64,000 nucleotides of DNA from Candidatus Oxydemutatoraceae bacterium (GTDB lineage Bacteria; Pseudomonadota; Gammaproteobacteria; Poriferisulfidales; Oxydemutatoraceae). The DNA lies in the NCBI GenBank assembly GCA_965218975.1, contig OZ244717.1, forward strand, positions 800,001 through 864,000, written 5' to 3'. Every line of letters begins with the position of its first letter. The first letter of the stretch is position 1. The translations under genes and the position numbers were made by a program. Of this stretch, positions 26,585 through 48,400 are shown piece after piece. The notes under the pieces were generated by a model that ran no database searches, was not told the DNA's origin, and was given only the letters and a program-made list of their open reading frames with translations.

Positions 26585-27441
26585 ATCGATTGTCTGCGAT
26601 CGCCTATTTGAACGGCAAATTTTTCCCACTGGAAGAATGTCGTATTTCGGTATTGGACCGTGGGTTTCTATTTGGCGATGGGATCTATGAAGTCATTCCG
26701 GTATATAACCGCAGTGTATTTGAATCCGAGTTGCATTTTGAACGGATGCGCCGAGGGCTTGAAAGAATAGGTATTGCTGTGCCACAGACTGATGCGAAAT
26801 GGCTGGATATTTTTGCCCGCTTAATCCGCGACTCGAAGTGTGACAACTTAGCAATTTATTTACAGATAACCCGCGGTGTCGCACCGCGTAGCCATTACGT
26901 TGTCGATCATATACAACCGACTACATTCGCAATGACTATGGCACTTAGTCGCACGGCAGATGATGTTCTGTGTCAGGGAACCACTGCGATTACCGCCGAA
27001 GATACACGTTGGCATCATTGCGATATCAAAACAATCAGCTTGGCGGCAAATGTCTTATTGCGTAAAAAGGCAGTTGAGGCAAATGCTTACGAGGTCATTT
27101 TGTTTCGTGATAAAGTTTTAACCGAAGGTGCGGCAGCAAATGTCCTTATTGTTTTCGGCACATCTGTTGCTGAGGCGCAGCTTGCGACTCCTCCTAAGGA
27201 TAATTGGATTTTGCCGGGTATCACCCGTGAGGTGGTAAAGCGTCTCGCCGTTGAGCATTCGATTCCGTTTGTTGAAAGACGAATTAGCGAAGAAGAAATA
27301 AAAGCGGCGGACGAAGTATGGCTGACGAGCTCTACCAAAGAAATTTTACCGGTGGTTTCAATTGACGGCCGAACGATTGGCGGCGGAAAACCCGGAGTGG
27401 TACGAGCGCAGTTTAGCCGGTGGTTAAATGCGCTTAAATGA
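26581..27441 (+). CDS. dat: D-amino acid aminotransferase (class IV PLP)
   Basis: DRGFLFGDGIYEV, YLQITRG, DIKTISL, ILPGITR; follows dacA. Confidence 0.88.
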   Translation: MNRLSAIAYLNGKFFPLEECRISVLDRGFLFGDGIYEVIPVYNRSVFESELHFERMRRGLERIGIAVPQTDAKWLDIFARLIRDSKCDNLAIYLQITRGVAPRSHYVVDHIQPTTFAMTMALSRTADDVLCQGTTAITAEDTRWHHCDIKTISLAANVLLRKKAVEANAYEVILFRDKVLTEGAAANVLIVFGTSVAEAQLATPPKDNWILPGITREVVKRLAVEHSIPFVERRISEEEIKAADEVWLTSSTKEILPVVSIDGRTIGGGKPGVVRAQFSRWLNALK

Positions 27442-27581
27442 CCGGGGGATCAGCACAACCCTATTGTCGGCAGCGATTACGAATATCACTGATTGCGGTG
27501 GCGGTGATCATTGCTCCGGACCGTGCTCAACTTGGGGTGTTCTCGATGGGAATTATATACATTCCTAGACAAAGGGGGCAC

Positions 27582-27610
27582 TCGACAAACTCTATCACGC
27601 TTTGTAGTAT
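27582..27610 (+). promoter_or_regulatory. Putative sigma70 promoter for first passenger gene
   Basis: TCGACA-17 bp-TAGTAT, with the ATG 6 nt downstream (possibly leaderless). Confidence 0.4.
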
Positions 27611-27616
27611 CGTCGC

Positions 27617-28174
27617 ATGCCGAAAACATTCTTGGAGAAAACAAAGGGCATATTACGGTTCTTTGGTTGGGAAGCCTTTCAAGCGTGGGTACTCCCATCA
27701 TTATCTGTACCGGTGGCTGTCGTGATAGGTTGGTTGTCATCAGCCCCGTGGTTTTTAGTTTATCTAGGAGCACTGTTCGCCTTTGCAATGACCGCGACTG
27801 GCCTCTTGCGATTTAGTGAATGGCGATTCAAAGTCACGGCACATCACAAGCTGTCATTCTCAAAAATTCTGTTACAGAAAGTGGTATCGGACGAAGGACA
27901 GATGCATAGTATCAAATTTGGTTTTTATCTGTACAACGCAGCCTCTTTCCCTATTGAGTACATCATTCAAGAGATAAGAACCGATTTAGATGGAGAGTAC
28001 TCGCCGAACAAGGAGCATGAGAAGGATGCTTATGTGATTCCGGCATTTGCGTTTGGTTGGTTTTACAATCATGCCATCCCTTTAAGACTTGATCATCCTA
28101 CAGGGAAGTTTGTAGAGGGTGGGCTTCATGCCAAACTCAAGTATGGTCGCCCACAAAACCCTGTCTGCGAATAG
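27617..28174 (+). CDS. Hypothetical membrane protein (IS passenger; possibly truncated)
   Basis: 185-aa ORF with two N-terminal hydrophobic segments. The frame stays open for 24 more codons after the TAG, to a TAA ending at 28249. Confidence 0.6.
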   Translation: MPKTFLEKTKGILRFFGWEAFQAWVLPSLSVPVAVVIGWLSSAPWFLVYLGALFAFAMTATGLLRFSEWRFKVTAHHKLSFSKILLQKVVSDEGQMHSIKFGFYLYNAASFPIEYIIQEIRTDLDGEYSPNKEHEKDAYVIPAFAFGWFYNHAIPLRLDHPTGKFVEGGLHAKLKYGRPQNPVCE

Positions 28175-28301
28175 GAGATCAAGCAAAAGATTATCGTGAA
28201 GTTTAATAATGACGGCGATGTAGAGAACATAGAGTGTTACGACTTATAATCGTCACGAATCTATCAAGGGATGGCCCTTTGCATTTCAGAACTCAAAACT
28301 C

Positions 28302-28330
28302 TTGACACCAACTCCTATTTTTGGTAGATT
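28302..28330 (+). promoter_or_regulatory. Putative sigma70 promoter of transposase copy 1
   Basis: TTGACA-17 bp-TAGATT, followed by AAGGAG before the start codon. Confidence 0.6.
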
Positions 28331-29308
28331 ACTAGACAACAGATAACGACCAAATAAGGAGTGAAGCACATGCCGAAGAAAGCCCCTGGAAAGCATTACC
28401 GAAACGGAATCAGCCTTGTTGAACTGATTGACCGATTCCCTAATGAAGCCTCAGCGCGAGCATGGTTTGAATCTATTCGATGGGCGAAAGGCAGGACGTG
28501 TCCCTACTGTGCATCCGAACACACCAACCCCGTCCCGAACGACAATCCCATGCCTTACCATTGCACGACCTGTCGGAAGTATTTCAGCGTGAGAACGGGA
28601 ACGGTGATGCAATCCAGTAATCTTCCCTTGAGAAAGTGGGTGATCGGGTTCTATCTGATGTCCACAAACCTCAAAGGCGTGTCCAGCATGAAACTGCATC
28701 GGGATTTGAAGGTGACGCAAAAGACGGCGTGGATGATGGCTCAAAAGATTCGGCAAGCATGGGATATGGACAAGGCCTCATTGACTGGGCCGGTCGAAGT
28801 GGACGAGACCTATATCAGGGGGAAAGAGAAGAACAAACACCAGAGCCGGAAGCCGAAGAAACTCAGAGGAACCACGGGGAAGCAGGCCGTCTTGGGGCTG
28901 CGTTCACGTGAGGGTCAGATCACGGCCAAGCCGATTCCAGGCACGGATAGGCAGACATTGTGGGGCGAGATTCAACAGCATGTCGAAAAAGGGAGTACCC
29001 TCTACACGGATGATCATGGAGCCTATCGTGGGTTTGGACTTGTCTGATTACGACCATCATGTGGTCAATCATTCAGCCAAGCAGTATGTGGACGGACAGG
29101 CCCACACCAACGGGATTGAGTCCTTTTGGGCCTTACTGAAACGTGGCTACCACGGGACGTTTCACAAAATGAGTGTCAAACACCTTCATCGTTACGTGAA
29201 TGAATTTGCCGGACGCCATAACATTCGTGAATCAGACACGATTGAACAGATGACATTCTTGGCTCAAGGTGTGGTGGGGAAACGTCTGCCCTATAGGGAG
29301 TTGGTGGC
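28303..29308 (+). repeat. 1,006-bp direct repeat copy 1 (promoter + IS1595 transposase); copy 2 at 31112-32117
   Basis: Direct comparison at offset 2809; at least six substitutions seen. Confidence 0.95.
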
Positions 29309-29312
29309 GTAA
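28361..29312 (+). pseudogene. IS1595-family transposase, frameshifted (copy 1)
   Basis: Zn ribbon CPYC...CTTC, VEVDETY, YTDD, HTNGIESFW, YVNEF. Split into ORFs 28361-29047 and 28908-29312 at CGTGGGTTTGGAC (~29027-29039). Confidence 0.9.
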
Positions 29313-29329
29313 TTGGAACATTTCGTAAG

Positions 29330-30316
29330 ATGAAGAATAACCCACTGCCACGACTCGATAGATCACCAGAATTGCGGAGCAAATTGTTGCCGTATTGTCG
29401 TCTTCAATTAGGAGATATTTGGGTGGATAAAGTGCGTGGTCATCGTGTTGGTTGTCTTGATGCTTCAAATCGTATGGCTGTAGACAGTATTATGGCTGGG
29501 GAACAGGCACAGTTGGCGATTCATGATCCACCGTATAATCTTGCAGCGTTTGAAAAAAGATCAATAACAGAATTTATATCTTGGTGTCAGACATGGGTAT
29601 CTCATACTTACAACGTATTAGCTCCTAATTCTTCGTTATATGTCTGGATCGGTGCTGATCAAAATGATGGATTTCAACCTTTACCCGATTTTGTTCTCAT
29701 GATGCGTGATCAATCTTTTCGTCCACGAAGTCTCATTACGATGAGAAATCAACGAGGATACGGTACTCAAAAAAATTGGATGGCTATTCGCCAAGAGTTA
29801 CTTTATTACACAAAAGGAAATCCTCATTTCTATGTTGATGCCGAATACACAGATATCCCCAAAATCCTTCGTGGGTATTATAAAGAAGTCAATGGTAAGA
29901 CTACGGAAAATCTGGAACGAAGTCGTTCAGATACAATTCGAGCAGGTAATGTTTGGGTTGATGTTCAGCAAATATTTTATCGAATGGAGGAAAATGTTTC
30001 AGGGTGCTACGCACAAAAGCCCATAAAGTGTATTGATAGAATTGTTCGAGCAAGTTCTTCCCCTCATGATGTCGTGATTGATTTTTTTGCACACTCAGGA
30101 ACGACTTTGATTGTATCTGAATTGCTCAACCGAAAATCCTTTACATTTGATGTTGATCCGATCTATGCCGAAATAACAATTCGTCGCCTTGAGCGATTTC
30201 GCTCTACGGGTCTCACGGGATGGCAAAATGGGAATCCTTTTGAGAAGGATGTACCCCACATCGGACTTGGGGAAATAATCATCCCTGAAACTGATTTCCA
30301 AGATACACTTTTTTGA
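29330..30316 (+). CDS. Site-specific DNA methyltransferase (N6A/N4C, beta class)
   Basis: Catalytic DPPY precedes the SAM-binding DFFAHSGTT; QKP motif. Confidence 0.9.
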   Translation: MKNNPLPRLDRSPELRSKLLPYCRLQLGDIWVDKVRGHRVGCLDASNRMAVDSIMAGEQAQLAIHDPPYNLAAFEKRSITEFISWCQTWVSHTYNVLAPNSSLYVWIGADQNDGFQPLPDFVLMMRDQSFRPRSLITMRNQRGYGTQKNWMAIRQELLYYTKGNPHFYVDAEYTDIPKILRGYYKEVNGKTTENLERSRSDTIRAGNVWVDVQQIFYRMEENVSGCYAQKPIKCIDRIVRASSSPHDVVIDFFAHSGTTLIVSELLNRKSFTFDVDPIYAEITIRRLERFRSTGLTGWQNGNPFEKDVPHIGLGEIIIPETDFQDTLF

Positions 30317-30326
30317 GTTTTATCTT

Positions 30327-31136
30327 ATGGAGCGTTTAGAAAAGGTGCTCAATGGCTTGTTGATGCAGCTTTCTAATGAGAGCGACATCAGAGACAGACT
30401 CAGCAATCTTAAATCGGTCTATCCATTCAATGAGTATGAATACATTATATCCCATCTGCTTGCAATGAATGTTCTCACCTTGGATGGTTATTTTGAACTC
30501 CGAGATGAATACATGGAAAGAAATATGTTTCTTTATATTTTTGAAATCAGTGCACCTCGAACTTTTGGAGAATCATGGGCTCAAGGGCATTTGAAAGAGC
30601 TAGTGCAAAGTTTAAAAAAACCATCAAAGAAAATAGACCCAAATTATTCCAGTCAATATGATTTTTATTTAGATGGAATTCGCATTGAAGTAAAAGCCTC
30701 ACGTGTAGTTGATGCGAATTCCGATGAACCGCTTTATGTGAAAGCCCTTTCGTCAGATTCAAAGAAAGAATTCTGGATGAACTTTCAACAAGTGAAACCA
30801 GATTGCTGTGATGTTTTTGTTTGGATCGCTGTTTGGCGTGATGTCATTCAGTATTGGGTATTATCGTCTAATGAAGTCAAAAGAAACCCATATTATTCAC
30901 AAGGCCAACATCGTGGAAATGTCGGTGAAGGTCAATTACATGTCAAACAAGATAATATCGAGGAATTTAAAGACTATAGGGCACAATCTAACAAGATTGA
31001 GGAATCAATTCGTCGTGCATATGTTCGACAAAAAGGAATAACAATGAGCTATGTAAAGCCACAAGATGTTGTCAGTCCACAAGAGCGGTGGAAACTTAGT
31101 CACGTCCTCTATGACACCAACTCCTATTTTTGGTAG
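30327..31136 (+). CDS. Putative PD-(D/E)xK restriction endonuclease; C-terminus fused to a fragment of another gene
   Basis: YDFYLDGIRIEVKAS nuclease-like motif; follows an MTase. Most of the last ~35 aa derive from the 5' region of the gene at 34049, the rest from the transposase promoter region. Confidence 0.62.
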   Translation: MERLEKVLNGLLMQLSNESDIRDRLSNLKSVYPFNEYEYIISHLLAMNVLTLDGYFELRDEYMERNMFLYIFEISAPRTFGESWAQGHLKELVQSLKKPSKKIDPNYSSQYDFYLDGIRIEVKASRVVDANSDEPLYVKALSSDSKKEFWMNFQQVKPDCCDVFVWIAVWRDVIQYWVLSSNEVKRNPYYSQGQHRGNVGEGQLHVKQDNIEEFKDYRAQSNKIEESIRRAYVRQKGITMSYVKPQDVVSPQERWKLSHVLYDTNSYFW

Positions 31137-31169
31137 ATTACTAGACAACAGATAACGACCAAATAAGGA

Positions 31170-32121
31170 GTGAAGCACATGCCGAAGAAAGCCCCTGGAA
31201 AGCATTACCGAAACGGAATCAGCCTTGTTGAACTGATTGACCGATTCCCTAATGAAGCCTCAGCGCGAGCATGGTTTGAATCTATTCGATGGGCGAAAGG
31301 CAGGACGTGTCCCTACTGTGCATCCGAACACACCAACCCCGTCCCGAACGACAATCCCATGCCTTACCATTGCACGACCTGTCGGAAGTATTTCAGCGTG
31401 AAAACGGGAACGGTGATGCAATCCAGTAATCTTCCCTTGAGAAAGTGGGTGATCGGGTTCTATCTGATGTCCACAAACCTCAAAGGCGTGTCCAGCATGA
31501 AACTGCATCGGGATTTGAAGGTGACGCAAAAAACGGCGTGGATGATGGCTCAAAAGATTCGGCAAGCATGGGATATGGACAAGGCCTCATTGACTGGGCC
31601 GGTCGAAGTGGACGAGACCTATATCGGGGGGAAAGAGAAGAACAAACACCAGAGCCGGAAGCCGAAGAAACTCAGAGGAACCACGGGGAAGCAGGCCGTC
31701 TTGGGGCTGCGTTCACGTGAGGGTCAGATCACGGCCAAGCCGATTCCAGGCACGGATAGGCAGACATTGTGGGGCGAGATTCAACAGCATGTCGAAAAAG
31801 GGAGTACCCTCTACACGGATGATCATGGAGCCTATCGTGGGTTTGGACTTGTCTGATTACGACCATCATGTGGTCAATCATTCAGCCAAGCAGTATGTGG
31901 ACGGACAGGCCCACACCAACGGGATTGAGTCCTTTTGGGCCTTACTGAAACGTGGCTACCACGGGACGTTTCACAAAATGAGTGTCAAACACCTTCATCG
32001 TTACGTGAATGAATTTGCCGGACGCCATAACATTCGTGAATCAGACACGATTGAACAAATGACGTTCTTGGCGCAAGGTGTGGTGGGGAAACGTCTGCCC
32101 TATAGGGAGTTGGTGGCATGA
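31170..32121 (+). pseudogene. IS1595-family transposase, frameshifted (copy 2)
   Basis: Near-identical to copy 1 with the same frameshift; has DETYIGG. Stop overlaps the start of the next MTase (ATGA). Confidence 0.9.
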
Positions 32122-33092
32122 AAGAAAGAGCACCAAGAAATCAAACATTGACATGTAGTTTGGAGGAAAAAACGCATTTGTCTGCTAAAATCCTTTATGC
32201 GGATAATCTGAATCATGGTGAGAATGTTGGTGAAAAAATCATTTGTGGTGACATATTTAAGGTTGTAGAAAACCTTCCCCAAAAGTTTGTTGATCTATTG
32301 ATTTTGGACCCCCCCTACAATCTCTCGAAAAACTATAATGGGCATCTTTTCAAAGAAAAAGATAAAGTCGAATACCAAGAATGGTTCGAGCGTGTTGTTT
32401 TGCTTTTAACTCCGACACTGAAATCAACTGCAACCGTATATGTTTGCTCTGATTGGAAAACCTCTATTCTTATTGTTCCAATCCTCGAAACATATTTTCA
32501 TGTTCGCAACCGAATCACTTGGGAGAGAGAAAAAGGACGTGGAGCGAGATCGAATTGGAAAAACAACACTGAGGACATCTGGTTCTGTACGGTTTCCAAT
32601 GATTATTACTTCGATGTGGCTTCTGTAAAATTGAAGCGAAAGGTACTTGCACCATACAGGGTTAACGAGAAACCTAAAGATTGGTATCAGGACGAAAATG
32701 GGAATTATCGTCTCACTTACCCTTCTAACATTTGGACTGATGTAACTATTCCCTTTTGGTCAATGCCTGAAAATACTGATCACCCTACTCAGAAACCTGA
32801 AAAACTCATCGCCAAACTTGTTCTTGCTAGTTCAAAAGAGGGAGATTTTGTATTCGATCCATTTTTGGGTAGTGGAACGACAACCACGATTGCTAAAAAA
32901 CTCGGAAGGAATTTTTGTGGGATAGACATCAATGAGGAGTACTGCTGCTGGGCAGTTAAACGTCTAAAAATGGCCGCTTCCGATAGGACAATTCAAGGAT
33001 ATGTAGACGGCGTTTTTTGGGAGAGAAATTCTCTTGCTGAGCAGCCTGTGAACGTAGCACAATCTTTAAAACAAGAAAAACTTTTGTTGTGA
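32118..33092 (+). CDS. Site-specific DNA methyltransferase (N6A/N4C, beta class)
   Basis: LDPPYN, HPTQKPEKL, DPFLGSGTT, GIDINEEY. Confidence 0.92.
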   Translation: MKERAPRNQTLTCSLEEKTHLSAKILYADNLNHGENVGEKIICGDIFKVVENLPQKFVDLLILDPPYNLSKNYNGHLFKEKDKVEYQEWFERVVLLLTPTLKSTATVYVCSDWKTSILIVPILETYFHVRNRITWEREKGRGARSNWKNNTEDIWFCTVSNDYYFDVASVKLKRKVLAPYRVNEKPKDWYQDENGNYRLTYPSNIWTDVTIPFWSMPENTDHPTQKPEKLIAKLVLASSKEGDFVFDPFLGSGTTTTIAKKLGRNFCGIDINEEYCCWAVKRLKMAASDRTIQGYVDGVFWERNSLAEQPVNVAQSLKQEKLLL

Positions 33093-33757
33093 AATCATCT
33101 TTTTATTACGACGGTCATTATCAAGATGTGGCTGATAAAATTAGAGACTATATCAATGCCTCTCCCGATTTTCTTTCTCCTCAAACAATTGGGAGTCCTA
33201 GAGCTACCGGAGATGCAATAGAATCACTGATTTCAGAAAAGTTTGATACGTTTTTGGGTGACTGGTGTGTTGAATATTCAAGTGATTTTGCTCGTAGGGC
33301 CATGGCTGATCTTGCCTTCACCGATAAGGAACAATTCTATTCTGTTGTTGATGTAAAGACACATAGAGAGAACACGGTATTTAACATGCCGAATCTGACA
33401 TCCGTAGAAAGATTAGCAAGGTTTTATAAAGCGGATGTCAATGTGTTTTCGTTGATCATGGTGAAATATATCATCGACAAGACTCATTTTAGAGCTACGG
33501 AAGTCATTTATTCTCCTATTGAATATCTGGACTGGGGGTGTTTAACGGTAGGCGCATTAGGATGGGGACAGATTCAAATAGCCAATTCCAATTACATTAA
33601 AATAAATCATGGGTATTCACGTAAAAAATGGATGCTTCAATTTTGTGATGTCATGCTCGATTTCTATCCCAAAGAAATTCTGAAAATAAAGGATCGTACA
33701 GGGAGATTTGACACGGTGAAAGCCTATTGGGAAGCAAAAGAAGATGTGTGGAATTGA
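33089..33757 (+). CDS. Putative PD-(D/E)xK restriction endonuclease
   Basis: GDAIE...MADLAF...VVDVKT resembles a PD-(D/E)xK core; GTGA overlap with the upstream MTase. Confidence 0.6.
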   Translation: MKSSFYYDGHYQDVADKIRDYINASPDFLSPQTIGSPRATGDAIESLISEKFDTFLGDWCVEYSSDFARRAMADLAFTDKEQFYSVVDVKTHRENTVFNMPNLTSVERLARFYKADVNVFSLIMVKYIIDKTHFRATEVIYSPIEYLDWGCLTVGALGWGQIQIANSNYIKINHGYSRKKWMLQFCDVMLDFYPKEILKIKDRTGRFDTVKAYWEAKEDVWN

Positions 33758-33808
33758 GAGCATGGAATTCTGTCTTGAATAAGGACTTTGATCAAGTAAC
33801 AATTCATT

Positions 33809-33973
33809 ATGAAACCCCCTAAAAAGACCACCAAACCCAAACGTCCCCGTGGTCGTCCAGTGATACGAATCATCGAGAAGATTGACGCGCCACCCGAAGA
33901 GATTGTCAAAGCCGTCTTTCGGGTGGCGGACCGAAAGCAGAGTGATCGGAATAATGGTAGTCGTGGCACTTGA
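33809..33973 (+). CDS. Small basic protein with AT-hook-like KRPRGRP motif (54 aa; absent from the ORF track)
   Basis: Manual translation: MKPPKKTTKPKRPRGRPVIRIIEKIDAPPEEIVKAVFRVADRKQSDRNNGSRGT. Confidence 0.55.
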   Translation: MKPPKKTTKPKRPRGRPVIRIIEKIDAPPEEIVKAVFRVADRKQSDRNNGSRGT

Positions 33974-33977
33974 GCGT

Positions 33978-34006
33978 TTGACACATTCAAAGCGTAACTG
34001 TACTAT
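33978..34006 (+). promoter_or_regulatory. Putative sigma70 promoter for last passenger gene
   Basis: TTGACA-17 bp-TACTAT. Confidence 0.55.
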
Positions 34007-34048
34007 CATTTCTGGATGTTTCGTCAGGGGCAGCGAAAAGGAATAACA

Positions 34049-34342
34049 ATGAGCTATGTAAAGCCACAAGATGTTGTCAGTCCACAAGAGCGGTGGAAAC
34101 TTAGTCGCGTCCTCTATGACGGCGGAGAGGGTGAGTGGTCTGCCGCAACAGGGTCGTGGAAGAACGACGAGACGGGGGAGGGGAAGGTTCTGGCTATTCG
34201 CTGGAATGGAGAGGGGGAGAATGCAATAGGGCACCCACAATCGTCCGGCCATGCCGTATGGTTTATCGTTCCCGACAAATTGGCGTGCGTCTTACGAGTA
34301 GTGATTAAAGTGATTGCTCTTCTGTCGAAGCGATTAAAGTGA
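34049..34342 (+). CDS. Hypothetical protein ('gene X', IS1595 passenger)
   Basis: AAAGGA RBS before the ATG at 34049; sequence includes SP..RW..VLYDGG..W..LAIRWNG..GHP..WFIVP. Partial copies at 31031-31115 and 36333-36457. Confidence 0.7.
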   Translation: MSYVKPQDVVSPQERWKLSRVLYDGGEGEWSAATGSWKNDETGEGKVLAIRWNGEGENAIGHPQSSGHAVWFIVPDKLACVLRVVIKVIALLSKRLK

Positions 34343-34360
34343 TTGATTTTCTGTCGAAGC
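34303..34360 (+). repeat. 29-bp tandem repeat x2 just inside the IS1595 right end
   Basis: GATTAAAGTGATTGCTCTTCTGTCGAAGC followed by GATTAAAGTGATTGATTTTCTGTCGAAGC. Confidence 0.8.
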
Positions 34361-34463
34361 CGTGAAGAATTATGTCTAGAAATGTATATAATTCCCTTCT
34401 CGATCTAGCTAGCCTCTCAAGCCATCATCATGATGCGATGATGATAACACTGTAGCGAATCGG

Positions 34464-34796
34464 TCAAATATTCTTTGAGTTGAATCTGCTTAGTCTTTTG
34501 AAATTTTCCGGAATGCCGATATCCTCCCATATTCCGGTGTATTGTTCGCCGCTGACCCGATTTGTTTCAATCGCAGGTTTCAGCACCTCGGTTAGCTGAA
34601 ACGGCCGTTGCGATTGCGGTTCAAATAATGCTGCGCGGTAATAGCCGATTCCAGAGAAAGTCAAGCGCAAGTCCGAATGCGGATGATTCATACAAACGGT
34701 ACCATTTTTCAAATGAAAATCCCCCTGACGATGGTGAGGCGGATTAGGTACCAAAATCAGATACGCGAGGCATTGTTCGGGTAGAGTAATTGGTTT
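34464..34796 (-). pseudogene. Duplicated 3' fragment of murU (part of the TSD)
   Basis: Identical to the C-terminal part of the gene at 36579-37256; cut off by the IS end at 34797. Confidence 0.88.
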
Positions 34797-36332
34797 CTTG
34801 ACTTCGTAGGTTTTGACCTTTGGGCAAAAAATAAATCCTTTATTATCATAGGGTTACCCGGACGCTGCCGAAAAACCCTATTGTAGTGCCCCCAGGCTTG
34901 TTTTCACTTGGATTTAGGGTTATCATTCGGGTCTATGTACTTGCGTGAAAAATATGATCCCGAACGTGGCCGCACTCGCTTGCAGATTGTACGTTCCGTG
35001 CGCACTGCCGATGGTCCCCGTCAGCGTGTGGTGCGGCATATCGGCACTGCCGACAGTCCCGAGCAGCTTGCATCTTTGCGCAAGCTCGGCGAGGTCACCT
35101 TGGAAGAGCTGCGCCAAGCCGGTACAGCACAGCAATCGCTGTTCACACCAAAGCAGTACGCGGATCTCGCAGCTGAGGCACGGCGCGCACCGCGTTTGGC
35201 GCGCTTCGGGGTAGATCTTGCCGAATGCCGTGAGGAGATGCGGCTGATACTTGGGGTGCGCGAGGCGTTCACGCAGATTTATTCGCACTTGGGTTGGAAC
35301 CAGGTGTTGGGGCGCGGCGCACAGTAGCGAACCGCATCCTGCGCGAGCTGGTACTGGCGCGTATCGCACAGCCGCAGAGCAAGCGCGCTACGGTGTGCGA
35401 GCTCGAACGAAGCGGCGTTTCGCTCAATCTCGACCGGGTTTACCAGACTATGGATCACCTTGAGGAGGCGGTGATCGCACGCATCCGGGAACAGTCTCAT
35501 CAGGCGGCACAAAAGTTGTATGATCAGCCCCTCAAGGTGTTCTTCTTTGATTGCACGACCCTGTACTTCGAGAGCGAGCAAGAGGACCCGTTGCGCGCGA
35601 AAGGTTATAGTAAGGACGGCAAGCCGCACCGCTGCCAGGTGTTACTGGCACTGATGACGACCTGCGACGGTCTGCCGGTGGACTACGCACTGTTGCCGGG
35701 CAACACCTTTGAGGGCAAAACCTTGATGCAGGCAGTGACAAGTCTGCAACAGAGACATCCGGGTGCTGTATTTACAGTAGTGGCCGATGCGGCGCGTTGG
35801 GACGGCCTGCGCGCAATCATCGCACACGGCAACGAGGAGATGGCGCCAAAGGAATTGCTGTCGCAGTACCGTCGGTTGTGGGAAGTAGAACATTGCTTTC
35901 GCACTAACAAGCATGACCTTTGCATCCGCCCGATCTTTCACTGGAAGCCGCGGCGTATCCAGGCGCACATTGCGATCTGCTATATGGCCTTCTGCTGCTT
36001 GCAGCAGCTGCGCCGGCGGCTCAAAGCGCTAGGCTTCCCGATGAGCGCGGAGCGGGTCCGGCGCGAGCTCGACACCTTGCAGTTGAGCATCTTGGCACAT
36101 ACCGACACACAGAAGCGGTATGCGATGCCGAGCCGCGCGAGCGCAGACGCCAACAGGATCTACCGTAGTGTCGGCCTGAAATGGAACGAAGCTCCGTTCC
36201 CGCTTCCCGACAAGTCACGCCCTGGGGGAAGCTGAGCGCGGAGGGCTACAAACAACACCGTAATGTAGTGCCCTTGAGAATCCTGAAGGCAATAATATCA
36301 ATCACTTACGAGACAAAACCTACGAAGTCAAG
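34797..36332 (+). mobile_element. IS1634-family insertion sequence (defective)
   Basis: 19-bp perfect TIRs CTTGACTTCGTAGGTTTTG / CAAAACCTACGAAGTCAAG, IS1634-type transposase, long flanking duplication. Confidence 0.9.
34935..36235 (+). pseudogene. IS1634-family transposase, frameshifted and probably internally deleted
   Basis: FFDCTTLYFE, GYSKDGK, PGNTFE, VVADA, YRRLWEVEHCFR..K, IRPIFHW. Frameshift at the G-run ~35309-35312. VVADA runs directly into ARWDG, where a long region is expected. Confidence 0.85.
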
Positions 36333-36578
36333 AGAATCCGCTTGGTCATCCAATTTCCCGCTCTCGTCCCGTATGGTTTATCGTTCCCGACAAATTGGCG
36401 TGCGTCTTACGAGTAGTGATTAAAGTGATTGCTCTTCTGTCGAAGCGATTAAAGTGATTGATTTTCTGTCGAAGCCGTGAAGAATTATGTCTAGAAATGT
36501 ATATAATTCCCTTCTCGATCTAGCTAGCCTCTCAAGCCATCATCATGATGCGATGATGATAACACTGTAGCGAATCGG

Positions 36579-37256
36579 TCAAATATTCTTTGAGTTGAAT
36601 CTGCTTAGTCTTTTGAAATTTTCCGGAATGCCGATATCCTCCCATATTCCGGTGTATTGTTCGCCGCTGACCCGATTTGTTTCAATCGCAGGTTTCAGCA
36701 CCTCGGTTAGCTGAAACGGCCGTTGCGATTGCGGTTCAAATAATGCTGCGCGGTAATAGCCGATTCCAGAGAAAGTCAAGCGCAAGTCCGAATGCGGATG
36801 ATTCATACAAACGGTACCATTTTTCAAATGAAAATCCCCCTGACGATGGTGAGGCGGATTAGGTACCAAAATCAGATACGCGAGGCATTGTTCGGGTAGA
36901 GTAATTGGTTTGGGTTGCCAATCCGTATAAATGTCGCTGTTTATTACCAGCCATGGACTATCGCCGAGCAAAGGCAGCGCTTTGCGAATTCCGCCACCGG
37001 TTCCCAGTCGTTGATCCCCTTCATCCGACCAGCGGATACGTACACCATAACGATTGCCGTCGCCTAAATCATTCATAATTTTTGTGCGCAAATGAGAAAC
37101 ATTGATTACAATCTCATTGAATTGGGCTTGTTTAAGTCGTCGGATATGTCTTCCAATTAAAGTTTCCCCACCGATTTTTAACAGAGGTTTGGGCGTGGTA
37201 TCAGTCAAAGGTCTGAGCCGTTCGCCGCGTCCGGCAGACAGAATCATCGCTTTCAT
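36579..37256 (-). CDS. murU: N-acetylmuramate alpha-1-phosphate uridylyltransferase
   Basis: MKAMILSAGRGERLRPLTDTTPKPLL, GTGGGI, VPNPPHHRQGDF; downstream of amgK. Start set at the ATG at 37256. Confidence 0.88.
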   Translation of the reverse strand: MKAMILSAGRGERLRPLTDTTPKPLLKIGGETLIGRHIRRLKQAQFNEIVINVSHLRTKIMNDLGDGNRYGVRIRWSDEGDQRLGTGGGIRKALPLLGDSPWLVINSDIYTDWQPKPITLPEQCLAYLILVPNPPHHRQGDFHLKNGTVCMNHPHSDLRLTFSGIGYYRAALFEPQSQRPFQLTEVLKPAIETNRVSGEQYTGIWEDIGIPENFKRLSRFNSKNI

Positions 37257-38227
37257 TTCTTGCTTGGCAGCTGACGTATCAATTCGCATACATCCGCAAA
37301 TTCCGGATCATGCTTCAAACCATCAGTAATGTAGCGGAGAGTGTGTGGAATGTCTTTTAAATAACCGGCTTTATTGTCACGATGATATAAACGCGCAAAA
37401 ATGCCGCTTGCTTTGAAATGCCTTTGTGCCCCCATTAAGTTGAAGCGATGCTTGAAAGTTTCAGAGGTGAAATTACTTGTTGAATAATTGGGCGATCGTT
37501 CCTGAAAATAGCTAACCCATCCGTCAATCTTATCTGGCGACCAAGCAATGTAGCAATCTTTGAGTAGCGATACCAAATCATACGTTATCGGGCCGGCCAC
37601 TGCATCTTGGTAATCTAGTACGCCAATTGTATCTTCTGCTTCAATCAGCAGTAAGTTACGCGAATGATAGTCGCGATGAATAAATACCGCAGGTTGTGTC
37701 GCCGCATTTTCCGCAAGTTTTTTGAATGCGGTTTCAAAGATCCGCCGGTGACGTGTTCCCAATTCGATTCTCAGATGTTTAGCGCAATACCATTGCGGAA
37801 ATAAACGCATTTCATCCATTAACGAGGTCTCGTCAAATAGCGGCAGCCCGTTAAAGTCTGCGGTTTGAATTTTCAGCAACGCATCAATTGCTTTACGATA
37901 AAGCCGGTCGGCATTTTTTTCGTTTAAGCAATTTAAGAATAGTGTGTCGCCGAGGTCATCTAGTAATAAAAAACCACATTGAATGTTTTGTGAATGAATA
38001 GCCGGGACACGAACGCCGGCTTGCATCAGACGCTGCGTAACATCAATAAAACCGGTGCAGTCTTCTTTCGCCGGCGGAGCGTCCATTAGAATATAGCATC
38101 CTGCGTCGCAGACAATTCTGAAGTAACGTCTGAAACTTGCATCATTCGTTAAAGGAACAAATTCATGCAGCGAGTGTCCGAGTGTTCCTGTAAGCCAACG
38201 CTTTGCCAATTCTTCTCTATTTTGCAT
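37253..38227 (-). CDS. amgK: Anomeric MurNAc/GlcNAc kinase (APH family)
   Basis: DASFRRYFR, MDAPP, HRDYHSRNL, DYQDAVAGP, YDLVSLLKDCY; paired with murU. Confidence 0.88.
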   Translation of the reverse strand: MQNREELAKRWLTGTLGHSLHEFVPLTNDASFRRYFRIVCDAGCYILMDAPPAKEDCTGFIDVTQRLMQAGVRVPAIHSQNIQCGFLLLDDLGDTLFLNCLNEKNADRLYRKAIDALLKIQTADFNGLPLFDETSLMDEMRLFPQWYCAKHLRIELGTRHRRIFETAFKKLAENAATQPAVFIHRDYHSRNLLLIEAEDTIGVLDYQDAVAGPITYDLVSLLKDCYIAWSPDKIDGWVSYFQERSPNYSTSNFTSETFKHRFNLMGAQRHFKASGIFARLYHRDNKAGYLKDIPHTLRYITDGLKHDPEFADVCELIRQLPSKK

Positions 38228-38265
38228 AAAAGGCTGTTCCGGTTCAAAAACGATAGTATTATAGT

Positions 38266-40062
38266 GTGCGGATTGAACGATTTATTGTGATAGATTTTCA
38301 AATCAACGTAGAAAGTAGCGATACTTTACATTCTCTTTTCCAAAAACGTGTCAAAAAATCTCCTGACGCTCCGGCTTACTGTCAGTTTAATCCGTCTTCA
38401 GACATGTGGAAAACCTACACTTGGCACGAGTGTTCCGAGCAAGTCGCGCGGTATCGGCAGGCAATGCTGAGAGAAGGTTTAACCGCTGGTGATCGAGTTG
38501 CAATGATGTTGCACAATTGTATCGAATGGGTAGTTTTTGATCAGGCGGCGTTGAGTTTGGGCCTAGTAACTGTTCCTCTGTTTAGCGAAGATAATGCGAA
38601 TAGCTGTGCTTATATTCTGCGCGATGCCGGGGTACGTTTATTATTGGTTGGGAATCAACGTCAGTTAGAGAAAATTCAATCGCAAAGGGAATTTGCGACA
38701 GACTTAAGTAGAGTGGTTTGCTGCGAGACTTTGACGACTTGCGGGAATAGCAGTGTCGTATGTCTTGCCGATTGGCTCGCTGCATCCGATGTCCGAGCAA
38801 GCGAAGCCGACTGTTTTACAGGAGAAGAAACTTCTGCAATATCTGCCGACACATTGGCGACATTGGTTTATACATCGGGCACCACCGGACAGCCTAAAGG
38901 CGTGATACTTACGCACAAAAATATTGTTTCAAATGTTCGATTCGTCAGCCGAATATTTGATTTTCACTCGGATGATCTGTTTCTTTCTTTTTTGCCTTTG
39001 TCGCACATTTTTGAACGAGTTGCGGGTTATTACATGACGATGTTGTTCGGTTCTCGCGTTGTTTTTGTGCGGTCGATTGCCAAGCTGCAGGAAGATCTTT
39101 GCCGGCATCGTCCCACAGTATTGTTATCGGTGCCAAGAATTTACGAACGCATCCATACAAAATTACGACAGAAGTTTTCGTTACCACCCCTGCGTTTATT
39201 GTTACGGTTATGCGTCGCAATCGGTTATAGACGTTATCGGCGCATGCAAATAGGGAAGCCGATATATTGGTTAAAACCGGCATGGTGGGTTTGCGATAAA
39301 ATTGTTGCCGAAAAAATACGTGCAATCCTTGGTGGCAGAATTCGTTGCGCCGTCGTGGGGGGAGCGCCGATGCCGGCGGAAATTGCGCACATCTTTCTTG
39401 CTTGCGGTGTTCCGATTTATCAAGGGTACGGTTTGACCGAAGCGTCGCCGGTGGTTGCCGTCAACCGACCGCAGAACAATTTACCTGAGAGCATCGGTCC
39501 TCCTATCCCCGAGATAGAAGTTCGGATAGATGAGCGGCATGAATTGCTGACACGTAGTGATTGTGTGATGCAAGGGTATTGGGGTTTGCCCGAGGCGAGC
39601 AAGCAGGCAATTGATAAACATGGGTGGTTGCACACAGGCGATATGGCAAGTATGGATCAAGAAAAAAGGCTGTTTATTACCGGACGGATTAAAGAAATTA
39701 TTGTGATGAGCAATGGTGAGAAAGTGCCGCCGGTAGATATCGAGATGGCAATTACATCGGCAGGACTGGTTTCGCAGGCGATGGTTTATGGAGAAGGTCG
39801 CCCTTTTTTAATTGCTTTGGTAGTGCCGGTCGAGGAAATGATAGGATATGAGGATACGGTGACACTCAGTGCGGCACTGAGAAAAGCAATCGCAAAAGAG
39901 TTAAAAAATTTCCCCGTGTATGCGCGTATTCGCCGTGTACTGATTGTGCAAGCGCCTTGGACAGTTGAAAATGGCATGTTAACACCGACTTTGAAATTAA
40001 AGCGCGCATCAATTATTGCCGCGCACCAAAATGAGATCGAAGCGGTTTATCGTGCGTTTTAG
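38266..40062 (+). CDS. Long-chain-fatty-acid--CoA ligase (AMP-dependent synthetase)
   Basis: YTSGTTGQPKG, GYGLTE, WLHTGD, LTPTLKLKR. Confidence 0.9.
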   Translation: MRIERFIVIDFQINVESSDTLHSLFQKRVKKSPDAPAYCQFNPSSDMWKTYTWHECSEQVARYRQAMLREGLTAGDRVAMMLHNCIEWVVFDQAALSLGLVTVPLFSEDNANSCAYILRDAGVRLLLVGNQRQLEKIQSQREFATDLSRVVCCETLTTCGNSSVVCLADWLAASDVRASEADCFTGEETSAISADTLATLVYTSGTTGQPKGVILTHKNIVSNVRFVSRIFDFHSDDLFLSFLPLSHIFERVAGYYMTMLFGSRVVFVRSIAKLQEDLCRHRPTVLLSVPRIYERIHTKLRQKFSLPPLRLLLRLCVAIGYRRYRRMQIGKPIYWLKPAWWVCDKIVAEKIRAILGGRIRCAVVGGAPMPAEIAHIFLACGVPIYQGYGLTEASPVVAVNRPQNNLPESIGPPIPEIEVRIDERHELLTRSDCVMQGYWGLPEASKQAIDKHGWLHTGDMASMDQEKRLFITGRIKEIIVMSNGEKVPPVDIEMAITSAGLVSQAMVYGEGRPFLIALVVPVEEMIGYEDTVTLSAALRKAIAKELKNFPVYARIRRVLIVQAPWTVENGMLTPTLKLKRASIIAAHQNEIEAVYRAF

Positions 40063-41680: not shown

Positions 41681-41690
41681 AAAGTGCCTG

Positions 41691-41991
41691 TCACCCATGA
41701 CGCGACTGGGTTCTGTCAACAAGCCCCAGCCCCGACGTCCTTGTCGGGTCGTTCACTGCTGAAAACCAATCGGTTTTCCGGGCGCGTCTCACCCATGACG
41801 CGACTGAGTTCTGTCAATGAGCGCCAGCCCCGACATCCTTGTCGAGCCGTTCACCGCTGAAAACCAATTGGTTTTCCGGGCGCGTCTCACCCATGATGAG
41901 ACTTGGTTCTGTCAATGAGCGCCAGCCCCGACGTCCTTGTCGAGTCGTTCACCGCTGAAAACCAATTGGTTTTCAGCGGTGCATCTCACCC
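41691..41991 (+). repeat. 98-bp tandem repeat x3, each unit with a GAAAACCAAT(T/C)GGTTTTC palindrome
   Basis: Units start at 41691, 41789 and 41887; the right-hand element has only one unit. Confidence 0.88.
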
Positions 41992-42424
41992 TGCACCGCC
42001 CTCATGCCGGCAACGGACAGAATGCACCGGTCCGAATGTTGCTGCCGAATGCTTCCCCGGAAGCTCTTCAAGAATCCCATTTAGGGTGGTATCGTACATC
42101 TTGTTGACTGACATTAAACACATGTGCTAAAGTCTGTAAAATAATTCGGATTCATAAACATTACTCATACTCATGCGAAAGCAAGGCCGATCGCACACAA
42201 AATTAAATTTGCGAACGAAATATTGGGTTCAATACCGGTGGTTCAATACCGGTGCTGATTTTTCAACATGAATGTAAGCGTGAACATAATGCCGTATATA
42301 ATGACAGTCGGCGGTGCCGAGAGTCGTTTGCAGAATGAGCGACTGCGAATGTTTTACTGCGCAAACGTCAAGCGGGCCCTTGAGCGTATTTTCGGCTTGG
42401 CGGGCATTGCGGTTTATTGACAAG

Positions 42425-45400
42425 ATGTTGAAGTTTTGTTGCTCCCGAGCGTTGCCGCGCGCGCAAAGTTTTTCCTTCGGTTTGTGTCTGTTGGCCGTAT
42501 TGATTGCTTCGGTCTATGTTGAACCTGCCCACGCTCAGACTGCGCCTGCAATCATTGACATCAATATCGTATCGCAACCGGCATTGGGAGGCACCTACCT
42601 TTTCGACGAGACGATCGAAGTGGCGCTGACGTTCGACGAGACAGTGATTGTAACCGGCGTGCCGCTGATCGAGCTGAATATCGGCGGCCCGAGCACGGCG
42701 CGTTACGTTAGCGGCAGCGGCAGGGATACGCTGATATTCGCCTATACGGTTGAGGCGGATGTCTTCGACGGTGGCGCCGGTATCAGCGTTGTGGAAAACG
42801 CGTTGGCGCAAGACGGCGATATAGACATGGGGCACCGTGGCGGGGCCGGGGTTGCCATTGTTTCTGACGATGACACCCCGATTAACCTTTCCAATTCGGC
42901 GCGGGATTTTCCCGATGTCAGAGTTGATGGTAGAGACAACCCGACACTCACCGCCATTGATATCGTATCGCAACCGGCATTGGGAGGCACCTACCTTTTC
43001 GGCGAGACGATCGAAGTGGCGCTGACGTTCGACGAGACAGTGACTGTAACCGGCGTGCCGCTGATCGAGCTGAATATCGGCGGCCCGAGAACGGCGCGTT
43101 ACGTTCGCGGCAGCGGCAACGATACGCTGATATTCGCCTATACGGTTGAGGCGGATGTCTTCGACGATGGCGACGGTATCAGCGTTGTGGAAAACACGTT
43201 GGCGCAAGACGGCGATATAAACATGGGGCACCGCGGCGGGGCCGGGGTTGCCATTGTTTCTGACGATGACACCCCGATTGACCTTTCCAATTCGGCGCGG
43301 GATTTTCCCGATGTCAGAGTTGATGGTAGAGACAACCCGACACTCACCGCCATTGATATCGTATCGCAACCGGCATCGGGGGACACCTACCTTTTCGACG
43401 AGACGATCGAAGTGGCGCTGACGTTCGACGAGACAGTGACTGTAACCGGCGTGCCGCTGATCGAGCTGAATATCGGCGGCCCGAGAACGGCGCGTTACGT
43501 TCGCGGCAGCGGCAGCGATACGCTGATATTCGCCTATACGGTTGAGGCGGATGTCTTCGACGATGGCGACGGTATCAGCGTTGTGGAAAACACGTTGGCG
43601 CAAGACGGCGATATAAACATGGGGCACCGCGGCGGGGCCGGGGTTGCCATTGTTTCTGACGATGACACCCCGATTAACCTTTCCAATTCGGCGCGGGATT
43701 TTCCCGATGTCAGAGTTGATGGTAGAGACAACCCGACACTCACCGCCATTGATATCGTATCGCAACCGGCATTGGGAGGCACCTACCTTTTCGACGAGAC
43801 GATCGAAGTGGCGCTGACGTTCGACGAGACAGTGACTGTAACCGGCGTGCCGCTGATCGAGCTGAATATCGGCGGCCCGAGCACGGCGCGTTACGTTCGC
43901 GGCAGCGGCAGCGATACGCTGATATTCGCCTATACGGTTGAGGCGGATGTCTTCGACGATGGCGACGGTATCAGCGTTGTGGAAAACACGTTGGCGCAAG
44001 ACGGCGATATAAACATGGGGCACCGCGGCGGGGCCGGGGTTGCCATTGTTTCTGACGATGACACCCCGATTGACCTTTCCAATTCGGCGCAGGATTTTCC
44101 CGATGTCAGAGTTGATGGTAGCGACAACCCGACACTATTGTTGCTCGGTTACACTGGCTTCTATGCATTGGTGGGTGACTTTTTTACTGCGGGAAGGGAA
44201 CTCGCGATGCCGTTGATAACCGGCCCGAATGCGAACGGATATTTGCTGCAGAGTGTCGAACTGCCGGTTACCCGTCCTGACGTGGCCGGCTTCTCCGATC
44301 TGACCGTTGCTTTGCGGTCTGCTTCGGAGGACGGCCCGGGCGACGTGCTTGCGACTTTTACCGCTCCGGGTGATGATGTTTCCGGCCGGCCGACGTTCAC
44401 GCTGCCCTCGAGAGCGTTCCTGCAGCCGAACACCACTTATTTTATAAGTTATCTCAATAATAGCACCGCTACTTTCAACTTTTTCGCTGCTCAAATAGGT
44501 GACCTGGAAACCGGATCGTTCGAATGGATCAGCGCTATCTCACCAAATTGTGGAGCCAATGACCCCACTATTACCCTATGCTTGTATATACGCGATATGC
44601 CAAGTGCTCCGTGGGGGGGGGCTCCTTTAATAACGGGGGTTCCCGCGGAATACTTCGGAGCGCTTATCACCCGTACCGAAGTTCGAATCATCGATATCGT
44701 ATCGCAACCGGCATCGGGGGACACCTACCTTTTCGACGAGACGATTGAAGTGGCGCTGACGTTTGACGAGACAGTGACTGTAACCGGCGTGCCGCTGATC
44801 GAGCTGAATATCGGCGGCCCGAGCACGGCGCGTTACGTTAGCGGCAGCGGCAGCGATACGCTGATATTCGCCTATACGGTTGAGGCGGATGTCTTCGACG
44901 GTGGCGCCGGTATCAGCGTTGTGGAAAACGCGTTGGCGCAAGACGGCGATATAGACATGGGGCACCGCGGCGGGGCCGGGGTTGCCATTGTTTCTGACGA
45001 TGACACCCCGATTAACCTTTCCAATTCGGCGCGGAATTTCCCCGATGTCTTTGTGGACGGCAGGCTCCTTTGCGCCCGCACACTACAGGTTCGAGAAGCG
45101 ATTCTCAACGCGCTTCCCGGTGTAACCGATTGCGCGGCGATAACCGATGCCGATCTGAACTCTATCATTGAGCTGGATCTGGCCGAAATGGAAATTACCG
45201 CCCTAAAGGTGAGGGACTTTGCCGGACTCGCAGCTATGACGACGCTGAATCTAAGCTTGAATGAACTATCGAGTTTGCCTGCCGGTGTGTTCAATGGTCT
45301 CGTTGCTCTTACAGCGTTAAATTTGAATAATAACCAACTGTCGGACTTATCTGCCGGAATATTTAATTTTCTTCCGACTTCACTGACGGAGTTAACTTTG

Positions 45401-48400
45401 CACGAGAATGAATTGTCGCCTGCAGCGTTCCCCGATGGTGTATTTGAACGCTTCAGGTCGCTTAGATCAATTACTTTGTTCGGCAATCCCGGAAGCGATT
45501 CCTTCAGGCCATTGGCAAATGCCGGGCCTGAGCGGACAGTTAGAGTTGGCGAAACGGTTACGTTGGATGGTATTGCTACCGACGGCGGTCCGTTCGGGAC
45601 TAACCTTATCTTCGCATGGTTGCAAGCCGAAGAGGATGCTATACCGATTACATTGACCGGTGCGGATACCGCTACACCTACGTTCATTGTGCCGACGGAC
45701 GCGCCGGTCGGGAGCGTTTTCCGGTTTGATCTGAGAGTGACCGGTAGGGGCGAATATCGTGCAAGCGCCCAAGCTCCGGCGGAGCACCTTACCACCTACG
45801 ACCGAACGACAGTGACGGTTACGATACTCGCGCCGACGGGTCTGTCAGCGACAGCGGGTCATAAACGGGTAATACTCGAATGGATGACGGGCGACGGCGG
45901 CGGCAGCGCGATCACGCACTATCAATATCGGCAGAAAGCAGACGGTGAGGATTTCAGTGGATGGATGAATATTCCGGACGGCGATGATGCCGACAGCGAC
46001 GCCGGCAACGAGACGAGTTATACGGTTACCGGTCTGACGAACGGCACGAGCTACCTCTTCCAAGTGCGTGCGGTGAATGCTCTTGGCGCGCACAGCGAGG
46101 CCACGGCTGAGGTTGGTGCGAGACCGTTCTTGATTGAAATCGCTACTGGTGATTTGGCTATTACGGATTTTTATGCCGGCCCTTTTTCTGGCCTTCTGGA
46201 TATTACACCAAACGAGCAGGTGATTGCGCGTCCGGTGTTCGTCTTTGTCGGGTTTATCGGTGGCGTCCGGATGAGTGGTATTGAGCCAGATGAGATCGAA
46301 ATTGGGAACGGTGAGATTTTGCTGGTGAGAGTCGGTGACGAATGCGGCTTCGCCACCCCGGTCCCAGATAACGTTATCTGTATAGAGATACTCCCGACCG
46401 GGCCGAATGGTTCTCAGCTTACGATGAGTCTTCCTGCCGATGTTGCCGATCTAGGCAATGCCGCGGCGCCGGATTTCTATCGCCGGGAAATCGTTCGTTC
46501 GGACGGTATCATGGCAGAGGCCGTCTCAATGCCTGACGGTCCGATTCTCACATCGGAGCCGTTCGTAGTTACTTTTACTTTCAGCGGCGACGGAATATTA
46601 ATAGGAATAAGAGGGGCTGCGGCGGATAATGTTCCGTTCCCTTTGGAGGATTACTTGGAGCCTGAGGAAATTGAGGTAGTTTATAGTCCCCCTGCACCGT
46701 CCGGTGGTACTTTTATTCGTCTTGAGGTTTCCAATTCCAGTGCTAGTATGGGACATACTAATATTGATATTACCCTTCGGGCAAGGCAGCGCTATGAGGG
46801 TGTGCTGACTGTAATTTTACCTGCCGGCTCGGCTCGCAACATTTATGGGGATTCCTTACCTGAGACAAGTTTCTCAATCGAAGTCGACACTTTCCACCCG
46901 ATTGGCATTGTTGCGTCTTCAACTTTTGTGGTGGAAGGTACGACAGCAGTATTTACACTGATGCGAGACGGTCTAATAGATAGAGAGACGGAAGTAACGG
47001 TAGAAGTAACCGAGACGAACGAAATGGTGGCCGCTGCGGATGAAGGAAGGAAGAGTGTAGCATTCGCTGCGGGCTCAAGCACGGCAATATTTTCAGTTCC
47101 GACTGTTGAGGATATTTCGGATGAAGACGACAGTGTGGTTACGGTTCGAGTGAACGAGGTTGGTTCTGATTATGTAGTAGATATGACACAAAACATTGCT
47201 ACGGTGACGATACGAGACAACGATGCTGTGCCCGATGCACCGGCGGACTTAGCAGCCGCGGCGGGCGATACGTACGCGGTCCTAAGTTGGGATGCGCCTG
47301 CCGACCCCGGCGCTTCGCCGATTGAGCGTTACGAATATCGCGCGAGTAGCGACGCCGGAACGGTTTGGAATCCGGATTGGACCGACGCCGGCGATGCGAC
47401 GAGCGGAGTTAGGACTCAAGTCGTATCAAACTTAACTAACGATACGGAATACACATTTGAAGTGCGTGCGGTCAGCGCAATAGGCAACGGCACGACCGCG
47501 CAAGTCACGGCGACACCGAGCTCCGCGACGGCGGTATTCATCCTGATGTTTAACCCGACCGAATATACGGTCAATGAAAGCGAAGGGCGGGTTGAACTCA
47601 CGCTCAGACTGACCGGCGTCGGGCGTGCGCCGCAGGATAAAGTGACCGTTACTGTCTCGACACGCGACGGCAGCGCGGTCACTCCTCAGAAGTATGCGGC
47701 TATTAATAATGCGACGATTGTCTTTGAACCCGAAGAGGGCGTGACCGAGTTAACGCAAACGGTGACGGTTCAGATTGTCAATGACATCGTTTTGACCCCC
47801 GATGATCAGAGCTTTTCGGTGGTTATTACGGATGGAACGGCGGCGCATTCCGACGATACGGTCGTGATTGATCGGGGTCGCAGCGAAGCGACGGTGACTA
47901 TCTTCGATGACGGTGTAGGTCCTAGGTGGGATTATACGCAGGAATTGCCTAGTACCGTTAATGAAAGCACGGCCATGAATACGGTTTCAATCCGGTTGGG
48001 TCAGGGAGAAGGGCTTTTCGATGGGATTTATACAATTATGCTTGAGGTGGGGGGAACGGCGACGTTCGGGGAGGATTATATAATAGAGTTTGTCAGCGGG
48101 AGGAATGTAGGATCGAGAACGCTGCCGTTCACGAAAGGCGACCGTTTGATGCGACCGATTGAGTTCATGGATGGGCGTGATGATGAGAGTGGTATACATA
48201 TACGAGAGTTAAGGTTGCGCTTAGTGGTGACGGATGACACGGTGTATGAAGCGGATGAGACGATTGAGTTGCGCTTAACTACGAGCCACCCGGCCGCTAC
48301 GGTAAGCGACGATACGACGCAGACAATCACGCTCATCGACAACGATACGACGCCGGTATTGTCTCTATCGGTCGGTGCGATTGTTATCGACGAAGGGGCA

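Follow-up and report, generated by a model that had tools for sequence, protein, structure and literature searches.

Long target site duplications (TSDs) of variable size are a known property of some insertion sequences. IS1634 of Mycoplasma mycoides and IS1549 of Mycobacterium smegmatis make TSDs of 8–514 bp, and a table in the same source gives C-----YT as the terminal inverted repeat (TIR) consensus of the IS1634 family (PMC2266710). Transporter IS (tIS) of the IS1595 family, such as MTnSag1/tISSag10 and tISCpe8, carry passengers (PMC5704250). Allelic substitution has been described for restriction-modification (R-M) systems, as has R-M insertion accompanied by a long duplication of the target (PMC2853133). 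The domain movement of TRDs in Type III mod genes proceeds by recombination at 8–117 bp of conserved motif-coding DNA (PMC3467074), and homology-facilitated illegitimate recombination uses a one-sided anchor together with 3–10 bp of microhomology (PMC3240628). The ingredients of the present locus, namely long-TSD IS1634, passenger-carrying IS1595, allelic R-M substitution and short-motif recombination, are all known. The feature found in the window (the whole stretch of 64,000 nucleotides that was analysed) is a real snapshot of gene exchange by an ordinary mechanism, and the claim made at first for its cargo is overstated.

The outer element is an IS1595 transposon that spans 27548–34396, in the interval separating a gene for a class IV aminotransferase from murU. 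Its left TIR (27548–27571, + strand) matches the right TIR (34373–34396) at 23 of 24 positions. The 8-bp TSD TTCTCGAT is present on both sides, at 27540–27547 and, in the left repeat copy, at 34397–34404. The TIR match and the paired TSD bear out the view of the initial annotation that the original ends of IS1595 and its TSD were kept. A TSD of 8 bp is typical of the IS1595 family. All genes of the element lie on the + strand. A passenger ORF of 185 aa without family match (27617–28174) is followed by transposase copy 1 (28361–29312), cargo 1 (29330–31136), transposase copy 2 (31170–32121; NF033547, 127 bits, cut-off 75), cargo 2 (32118–33757), a small 54-aa ORF (33809–33973) and gene X. Both transposase copies are split over two frames, and they differ at 8 sites. 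Each cargo consists of an N6/N4 DNA methylase and a putative restriction gene, which has no family match and is named from its position. The N-terminal part of transposase copy 2 is above the cut-offs of PF12760, PF12762 and NF033547, as expected for IS1595. The passengers between the TIRs are two N6/N4 methylases, four ORFs without family match and the small ORF. The element resembles the described tIS in its IS1595 transposase, its TIRs of about 25 bp, its short target duplication and its passenger genes. Unlike those covered in the source, it holds two transposase copies, each of them split, and two methylase cargos within one pair of ends. No recombinase was matched among the scanned ORFs of the element, and its junctions at 31112, 33831 and 34254 lie at different sequences, unlike those of integron-like site-specific cassettes. 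Near 31031–31115 there is also a 5' fragment of gene X, one SNP away from allele A, that is fused to the end of the putative restriction gene of cargo 1. This gene runs into the fragment at 31044–31115, which joins the second transposase block at 31112 through a 4-bp microhomology.

The inner element is a decayed IS1634-family copy at 34797–36332 (+ strand), the boundaries of which were taken from 14 other two-ended copies. An intact sister copy scored 338 bits on NF033559, the IS1634-type DDE transposase (cut-off 100). The window copy is 97–99% identical to intact copies but broken by a 375-bp deletion between 15-bp repeats and a 1-bp deletion near 35311, and it has 5 private substitutions. 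Its length is 1536 bp, and the copies of the genome measure 1911–1928 bp. The ends, CTTGACTT, and the size agree with the C-----YT consensus and the 1.5–2 kb of the IS1634 family. Exact TSDs of 7, 23, 29, 32, 67, 77, 116, 323, 433 and 618 bp were found for 10 of the 15 two-ended copies in the 2.08-Mb genome, and all ten begin with the base that adjoins the IS. For 3 of the 15, no TSD abutting the IS was found within 15 kb. The TSD sizes are not the 5–6 bp typical of the family and match those of its long-TSD members. The likeness to IS1634 and IS1549 covers the IS1634-family transposase, the length of about 1.9 kb, the ends starting with C.....TT and the variable long TSDs (7–618 bp here) abutting the IS ends. 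The differences from these two elements as described are a TSD with a diverged start, TSDs up to 579 and 618 bp and one duplication of 5.9/7.1 kb. The latter, a direct duplication of 5903/7127 bp, flanks the IS1634 copy at 1074700–1076627 (G000:C1:1068797-1083754, outside the window) and is far larger than the published 8–514 bp (PMC2266710). Its boundaries are exact at both IS ends, and its ends are 95–100% identical, including a first stretch of 489 identical bp. Its middle, which encodes a giant repeat surface protein, has been remodelled.

Genome-wide, the IS1634 copies share SNP blocks as patchwork mosaics, which would point to frequent recombination or conversion among copies. Beside the 5 private substitutions of the window copy, copies with perfect TSDs of at least 23 bp have 0–3, and 10–13 are found in three copies that look older and whose flanks are lost or remodelled. 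Copy 883 has 17 despite an exact 7-bp TSD. The flanks of the copies are without strong target specificity. In the window, the insertion duplicated the 3' end of gene X, the right TIR of IS1595, the 8-bp TSD and the 3' part of murU. Because the target duplication copied this 3' part, murU stays intact at 36579–37289 (− strand; NF045761, 263 bits, cut-off 250).

The two copies of the duplication are in register and measure 579 bp each (36 + 543). The identity covers exactly 543 bp, 34254–34796 on the left and 36369–36911 on the right (both + strand). The left part holds the 3' end of gene X, the right TIR and 8-bp TSD of IS1595 and an orphan murU 3' part, and the right part contains the second IS1595 right end with its TSD at 36512–36519. 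The first 36 bp are different. The allele A patch at 34218–34253 and the allele B patch at 36333–36368 (both + strand) are aligned gap-free and codon by codon with 19/36 identities, and their translations are ENAIGHPQSSGHAVWFIVPD and ENPLGHPISRSRPVWFIVPD, respectively. All 17 differences are confined to 34223–34253, where 14/31 positions are identical, and three of them, at G, H and S codons, are synonymous. The heavily diverged, codon-aligned starts followed by 543 identical bp that the initial annotation had reported are confirmed by these counts. It had also reasoned that the copies of a TSD should begin identical. Since the exact TSDs of ten copies abut the IS, the 36 bp belong to the TSD and its two copies are indeed expected to be identical at the start. 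The objection that the 36 bp might be an IS1634 end, foreseen in the same annotation, is ruled out; other copies stop at the same base and their flanks are unrelated. The 3' end of gene X also contains a short imperfect tandem duplication at 34300–34363 that alters the C-terminus. It is found in both TSD copies and therefore predates the IS1634 insertion or has been homogenised since.

An identity of 19/36 to the left copy is reached by 586 of the 2,080,960 + strand 36-mers of the genome (2.8e-4). The score of the B patch against a gene X profile built from 15 homologues, the window's own gene left out, was reached by none of 200,000 random genome pieces. Chance similarity of the two patches is ruled out by these two measures, and gradual point mutation is ruled out by a patch of 45% identity lying beside 543 identical bp. 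Allele B is therefore truly homologous to gene X, though distantly.

Gene X in the form of allele A encodes 97 aa (34049–34342, + strand) and belongs to a widespread hypothetical family, with 955 representatives at E 0.001 or better and no Pfam or NCBIfam match. Its ESM Atlas clusters are hypothetical only, and its plasmid matches are below 60% identity and annotated as hypothetical. A general linkage of gene X to IS1595 was unsupported; 1 of the 78 loci with at least 3 kb upstream had a match to the window transposase by tblastn, which may miss divergent transposases. In 34223–34253, A and B are 45% identical, and the mean identity of A to 108 distinct homologues from other organisms is 53%. 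A and B are no closer to each other than A is to the homologues of other organisms; one of the alleles came by recombination. The switch between them lies 5 bp before the WFIVP codons and only 2 bp ahead of the Val codon. No other DNA in the aligned part is as well conserved as these codons; their mean identity across homologues is 87%, a value biased by homologue searches that required WFIVP.

The Val before Trp gives a hint on which allele is the older partner. In the genome set it occurs in 6/12 homologues without the 'Q..G' motif of A and in 2/33 with it (p 0.002). The corresponding values are 5/52 and 1/77 (p 0.04) in a second set of 149 proteins, from which 20 without the required motif were left out to give 129 representatives; in the Val statistic as a whole, the rows are related and non-independent. 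Allele B, like the Val-richer homologues, is without the 'Q..G' motif, and the shared repeat part carries Val before Trp. Val is also present in 3/6 homologues of the second set that have Ile at B's Ile position. Exceptions are P0011, which has an A-type motif with Val, and P0049, which has an A-like patch with Ala-Val. By protein comparison with P0002 (45/56 in the N-part and 12/18 in the C-part), the A form is not clearly chimeric. A step in GC content at the switch favours neither view. Together, the residue pattern speaks modestly for B as the original companion of the shared 3' part, to which A would have been joined later at about 34254.

The initial annotation had named a full B allele, in another IS1595 copy or at this locus in sister strains, as a find that would support its view. 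None was found in the genome or in the 30 relatives with gene X DNA, and a 23-base B probe had no exact match in metagenome contigs. The protein search with the B fragment returned, among 4 candidates, only the window's own protein, and the best patch identity to B was 9/12 among the 129 representatives with the motif. Gene X itself was matched in 2 of 399 other scored genomes of the class. An A-type donor was likewise not found in the genome, relatives, metagenome or protein searches. A blastn match to the patch at genome positions 443540–443569 (83% over 30 nt) is not gene X.

Six public runs from two studies contain this stretch, and five were examined, all as short-read contigs. X1–X3 belong to one study, which may include the assembly's own sample, and X5 to the other. 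A contig of 93 bases, present in X1 and X3, matches 36318–36398 (IS end, B patch and repeat start) without any difference, and one of 207 bases connects A to the repeat. The repeat contig of both runs begins at 36369 with about 1.5–2 times the depth of the flank. In X5 (depth about 3), 24 bp of B are connected to the repeat. In X2, a single contig of 702 bases holds A together with the repeat, and the B contig is not listed; graph simplification may drop B. X6 (0.28 of words) has no listed piece on either patch. None of the junction contigs reaches the 31 letters per side of our bridging rule, and the contigs do not phase A with IS and B. Among these contigs, which drop rare variants, B preceded by non-IS sequence and A preceded by the IS end were not found.

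In X1, the depths are 113 for the A contig, 64 for the B contig, 33 and 82 for the right exits, about 61–63 for cargo 2, about 105 for the flank and 43.5 for an alternative path from 31032 to 33831; contig depth is a hint only and not a share of cells. These data suggest that the population is structurally mixed at the locus. The 31032/33831 joint, found in X1 and X3, suggests a variant without the second transposase block and cargo 2, the path rejoining in the small ORF at 33831, and the depths sum roughly to that of the flank. This joint was called at a likeness of at least 80 with a 30-letter side and could come from another organism. Another contig in X1 and X3 (depths 119 and 62) matches 27564–27640, 32014–32090 and 33831 onward at 80% or more. 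It represents a related IS1595 element that was not found in the genome and likely comes from a co-occurring organism. A low-depth contig of X2 has a similar right end with another allele of gene X, and therefore possible donors co-occur. In X1–X3 a SNP near 36894/34779 segregates in the 543-bp repeat. The right exit shows both of its alleles, and subtraction places the SNP in the exit into the IS as well, a hint of conversion between the repeat copies or of exchange between strains. The right flank of X3 (36895–38500) has a depth of 20 and the left (26500–27776) of 36, compared with 125 and 105 in X1; the gap in X3 may reflect a deletion in some members of the population, or noise.

We lean towards an account in which the long TSD was made by IS1634 when IS1595 carried B, and A later overwrote the start of the left copy. 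IS1634 would have inserted into a resident IS1595 bearing allele B, with a target duplication of 579 bp. Recombination with the distant allele A would then have replaced the start of the left copy, with its junction at about 34254, just before the V-W-F-I-V-P codons. The right copy, severed from its 5' half, would retain 36 bp of B. The exchange may have been made by host recombination of the RecA type, with one long anchor and one junction of short homology. We infer the event order, the donor and the host recombination from this arrangement. Matches to recA, comEC, dprA and mutS are present in open frames of the genome; recA, comEC and dprA are common, since the controls match in 10–14 of 14 genomes. 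From the IS1634 mosaics and the remodelled second TSD, the genome appears to recombine actively among repeats. The proposed exchange would resemble homology-facilitated illegitimate recombination in its in-place replacement, its one junction at little or no homology and the presence of competence gene homologues. Unlike in the published cases, a long anchor and a microhomology of 3–10 bp are only presumed here; neither the donor nor a full B element was found.

A possible, though doubtful, alternative is that the A/B switch is older and took place in a sister lineage without IS1634. Allelic recombination in the 543 bp would later have joined A on the left to IS1634 and B on the right, with the other crossover in murU-amgK or further left. 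The TSD would then keep B while neither dating nor placing the exchange. The X1 depths are consistent with it, as they suggest chromosomes with A and a single repeat copy. However, deletion between the 543-bp repeats would also yield IS-free A chromosomes, contig depth is no share of cells, and X3 shows another pattern (B contig 18, right flank 20). No difference separates the two 543-bp copies though the IS looks aged; the rough P of no difference in the repeat beside 5 private IS substitutions is 0.03–0.06. Zero divergence of the repeat and a SNP in more than one repeat exit point to a later exchange across the repeat, which fits the older switch, and 543 bp of perfect homology are an easier substrate than a few bp. 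On the other hand, the in-place switch at 34254 is still needed, and one step is added. In this alternative and in the preferred account alike, the interior at the insertion site was changed in place and the ends were kept. The initial annotation had the interior overwritten after the IS1634 insertion with a crossover near 34254. In-place exchange with a switch at about 34254 survives as the simplest reading, with B modestly favoured as the older allele. The timing after the insertion stays a supposition, because an older switch followed by recombination in the 543 bp would look the same.

The further claim that the IS1595 cargo was replaced, in support of a cargo-swapping model, goes beyond the evidence. 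Just 36 bp of the diverged zone are covered by the TSD, with which a short patch agrees equally well. What the TSD proves is a change within gene X of at least 31 bp and no more than that, and the exchanged tract may be anything from 31 bp to the whole interior. By contig depth, the form without cargo 2 also appears to carry allele A. Because both cargo forms share A by depth, the A/B switch looks like an event distinct from the difference in cargo. Cargo exchange is better indicated by the differences between the two transposase blocks, 5/8 of which fall in their last 64 bp, and by the path rejoining at 33831. A broader reading, which we regard as unlikely, is that this IS1595 lineage is a modular cargo vehicle, the interior of which is exchanged in place at conserved anchors between distantly related elements of different hosts. 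The anchors would be the transposase 3' end, the small ORF at 33831 and the WFIVP codons of gene X, and the TSD would have frozen a piece of a wholly different interior. Less likely still, the diverged start would record two-template filling during formation of the long TSD.

It is very unlikely that the difference arose at insertion, into a heteroduplex or recombination-intermediate target or by two-template filling of the TSD, with copies that were never identical. In a staggered DDE insertion the two TSD copies stem from opposite target strands, which counts in its favour, and the diverged patch abuts the IS end. Exact TSDs in 10 of the 15 copies and a multi-kb one that opens with 489 identical bp speak against it; moreover, a stretch of 45% identity does not pair, and two rare events would be needed at once. 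As of 2008, there was no mechanistic model for these long TSDs according to the source (PMC2266710), which leaves it some room. Slightly more improbable is that A was always resident and that the right 36 bp were imported with the right end of an IS1634 element inserted in a B-type gene X at the homologous position. IS1634 copies seem to exchange sequence freely, and A with the shared C-terminus resembles P0002 throughout. However, a second independent insertion in a homologous gene with its TSD in register would be required, the flanks argue against strong target specificity, and the Val codon fits B-type better. A chimeric assembly of strains or co-occurring organisms is scarcely credible, despite the mixed locus, the B contig unlisted in X2 and the single origin of X1–X3, since the short-read contigs of X1 and X3 contain both junctions, X5 has the joint of B with the repeat, and depth is raised in the repeat contig beginning at 36369; the strain chimera named as a danger in the initial annotation did not materialise.

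The in-place exchange of alleles resembles mod domain movement in that the switch between distant alleles adjoins the most conserved codons of the gene. It differs in that a small hypothetical gene inside a transposon is concerned. As in allelic R-M substitution, R-M-type cargo varies at one locus between conserved flanks. Unlike the described R-M insertion, the long duplication was made by IS1634 and flanks the IS rather than R-M genes. The literature searched, mostly openly accessible journals at the level of titles and abstracts, yielded no account of a TSD that keeps an earlier allele. Long IS1634 TSDs are time stamps that can retain the state of a locus at insertion and expose a later exchange, here between alleles of 45% identity. 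Their use in this way is a useful forensic trick, for which this genome provides several cases. The locus supports the general view that host recombination remodels the interiors of transposons, and it reveals no new machinery. The importance would rise if whole interiors proved to be swapped at fixed anchors in sister strains. Elsewhere in the window, three 98-bp tandem repeats are present at 41686–41979, and a repeat surface protein of 5251 aa (42314–58069) lies between IS remnants.
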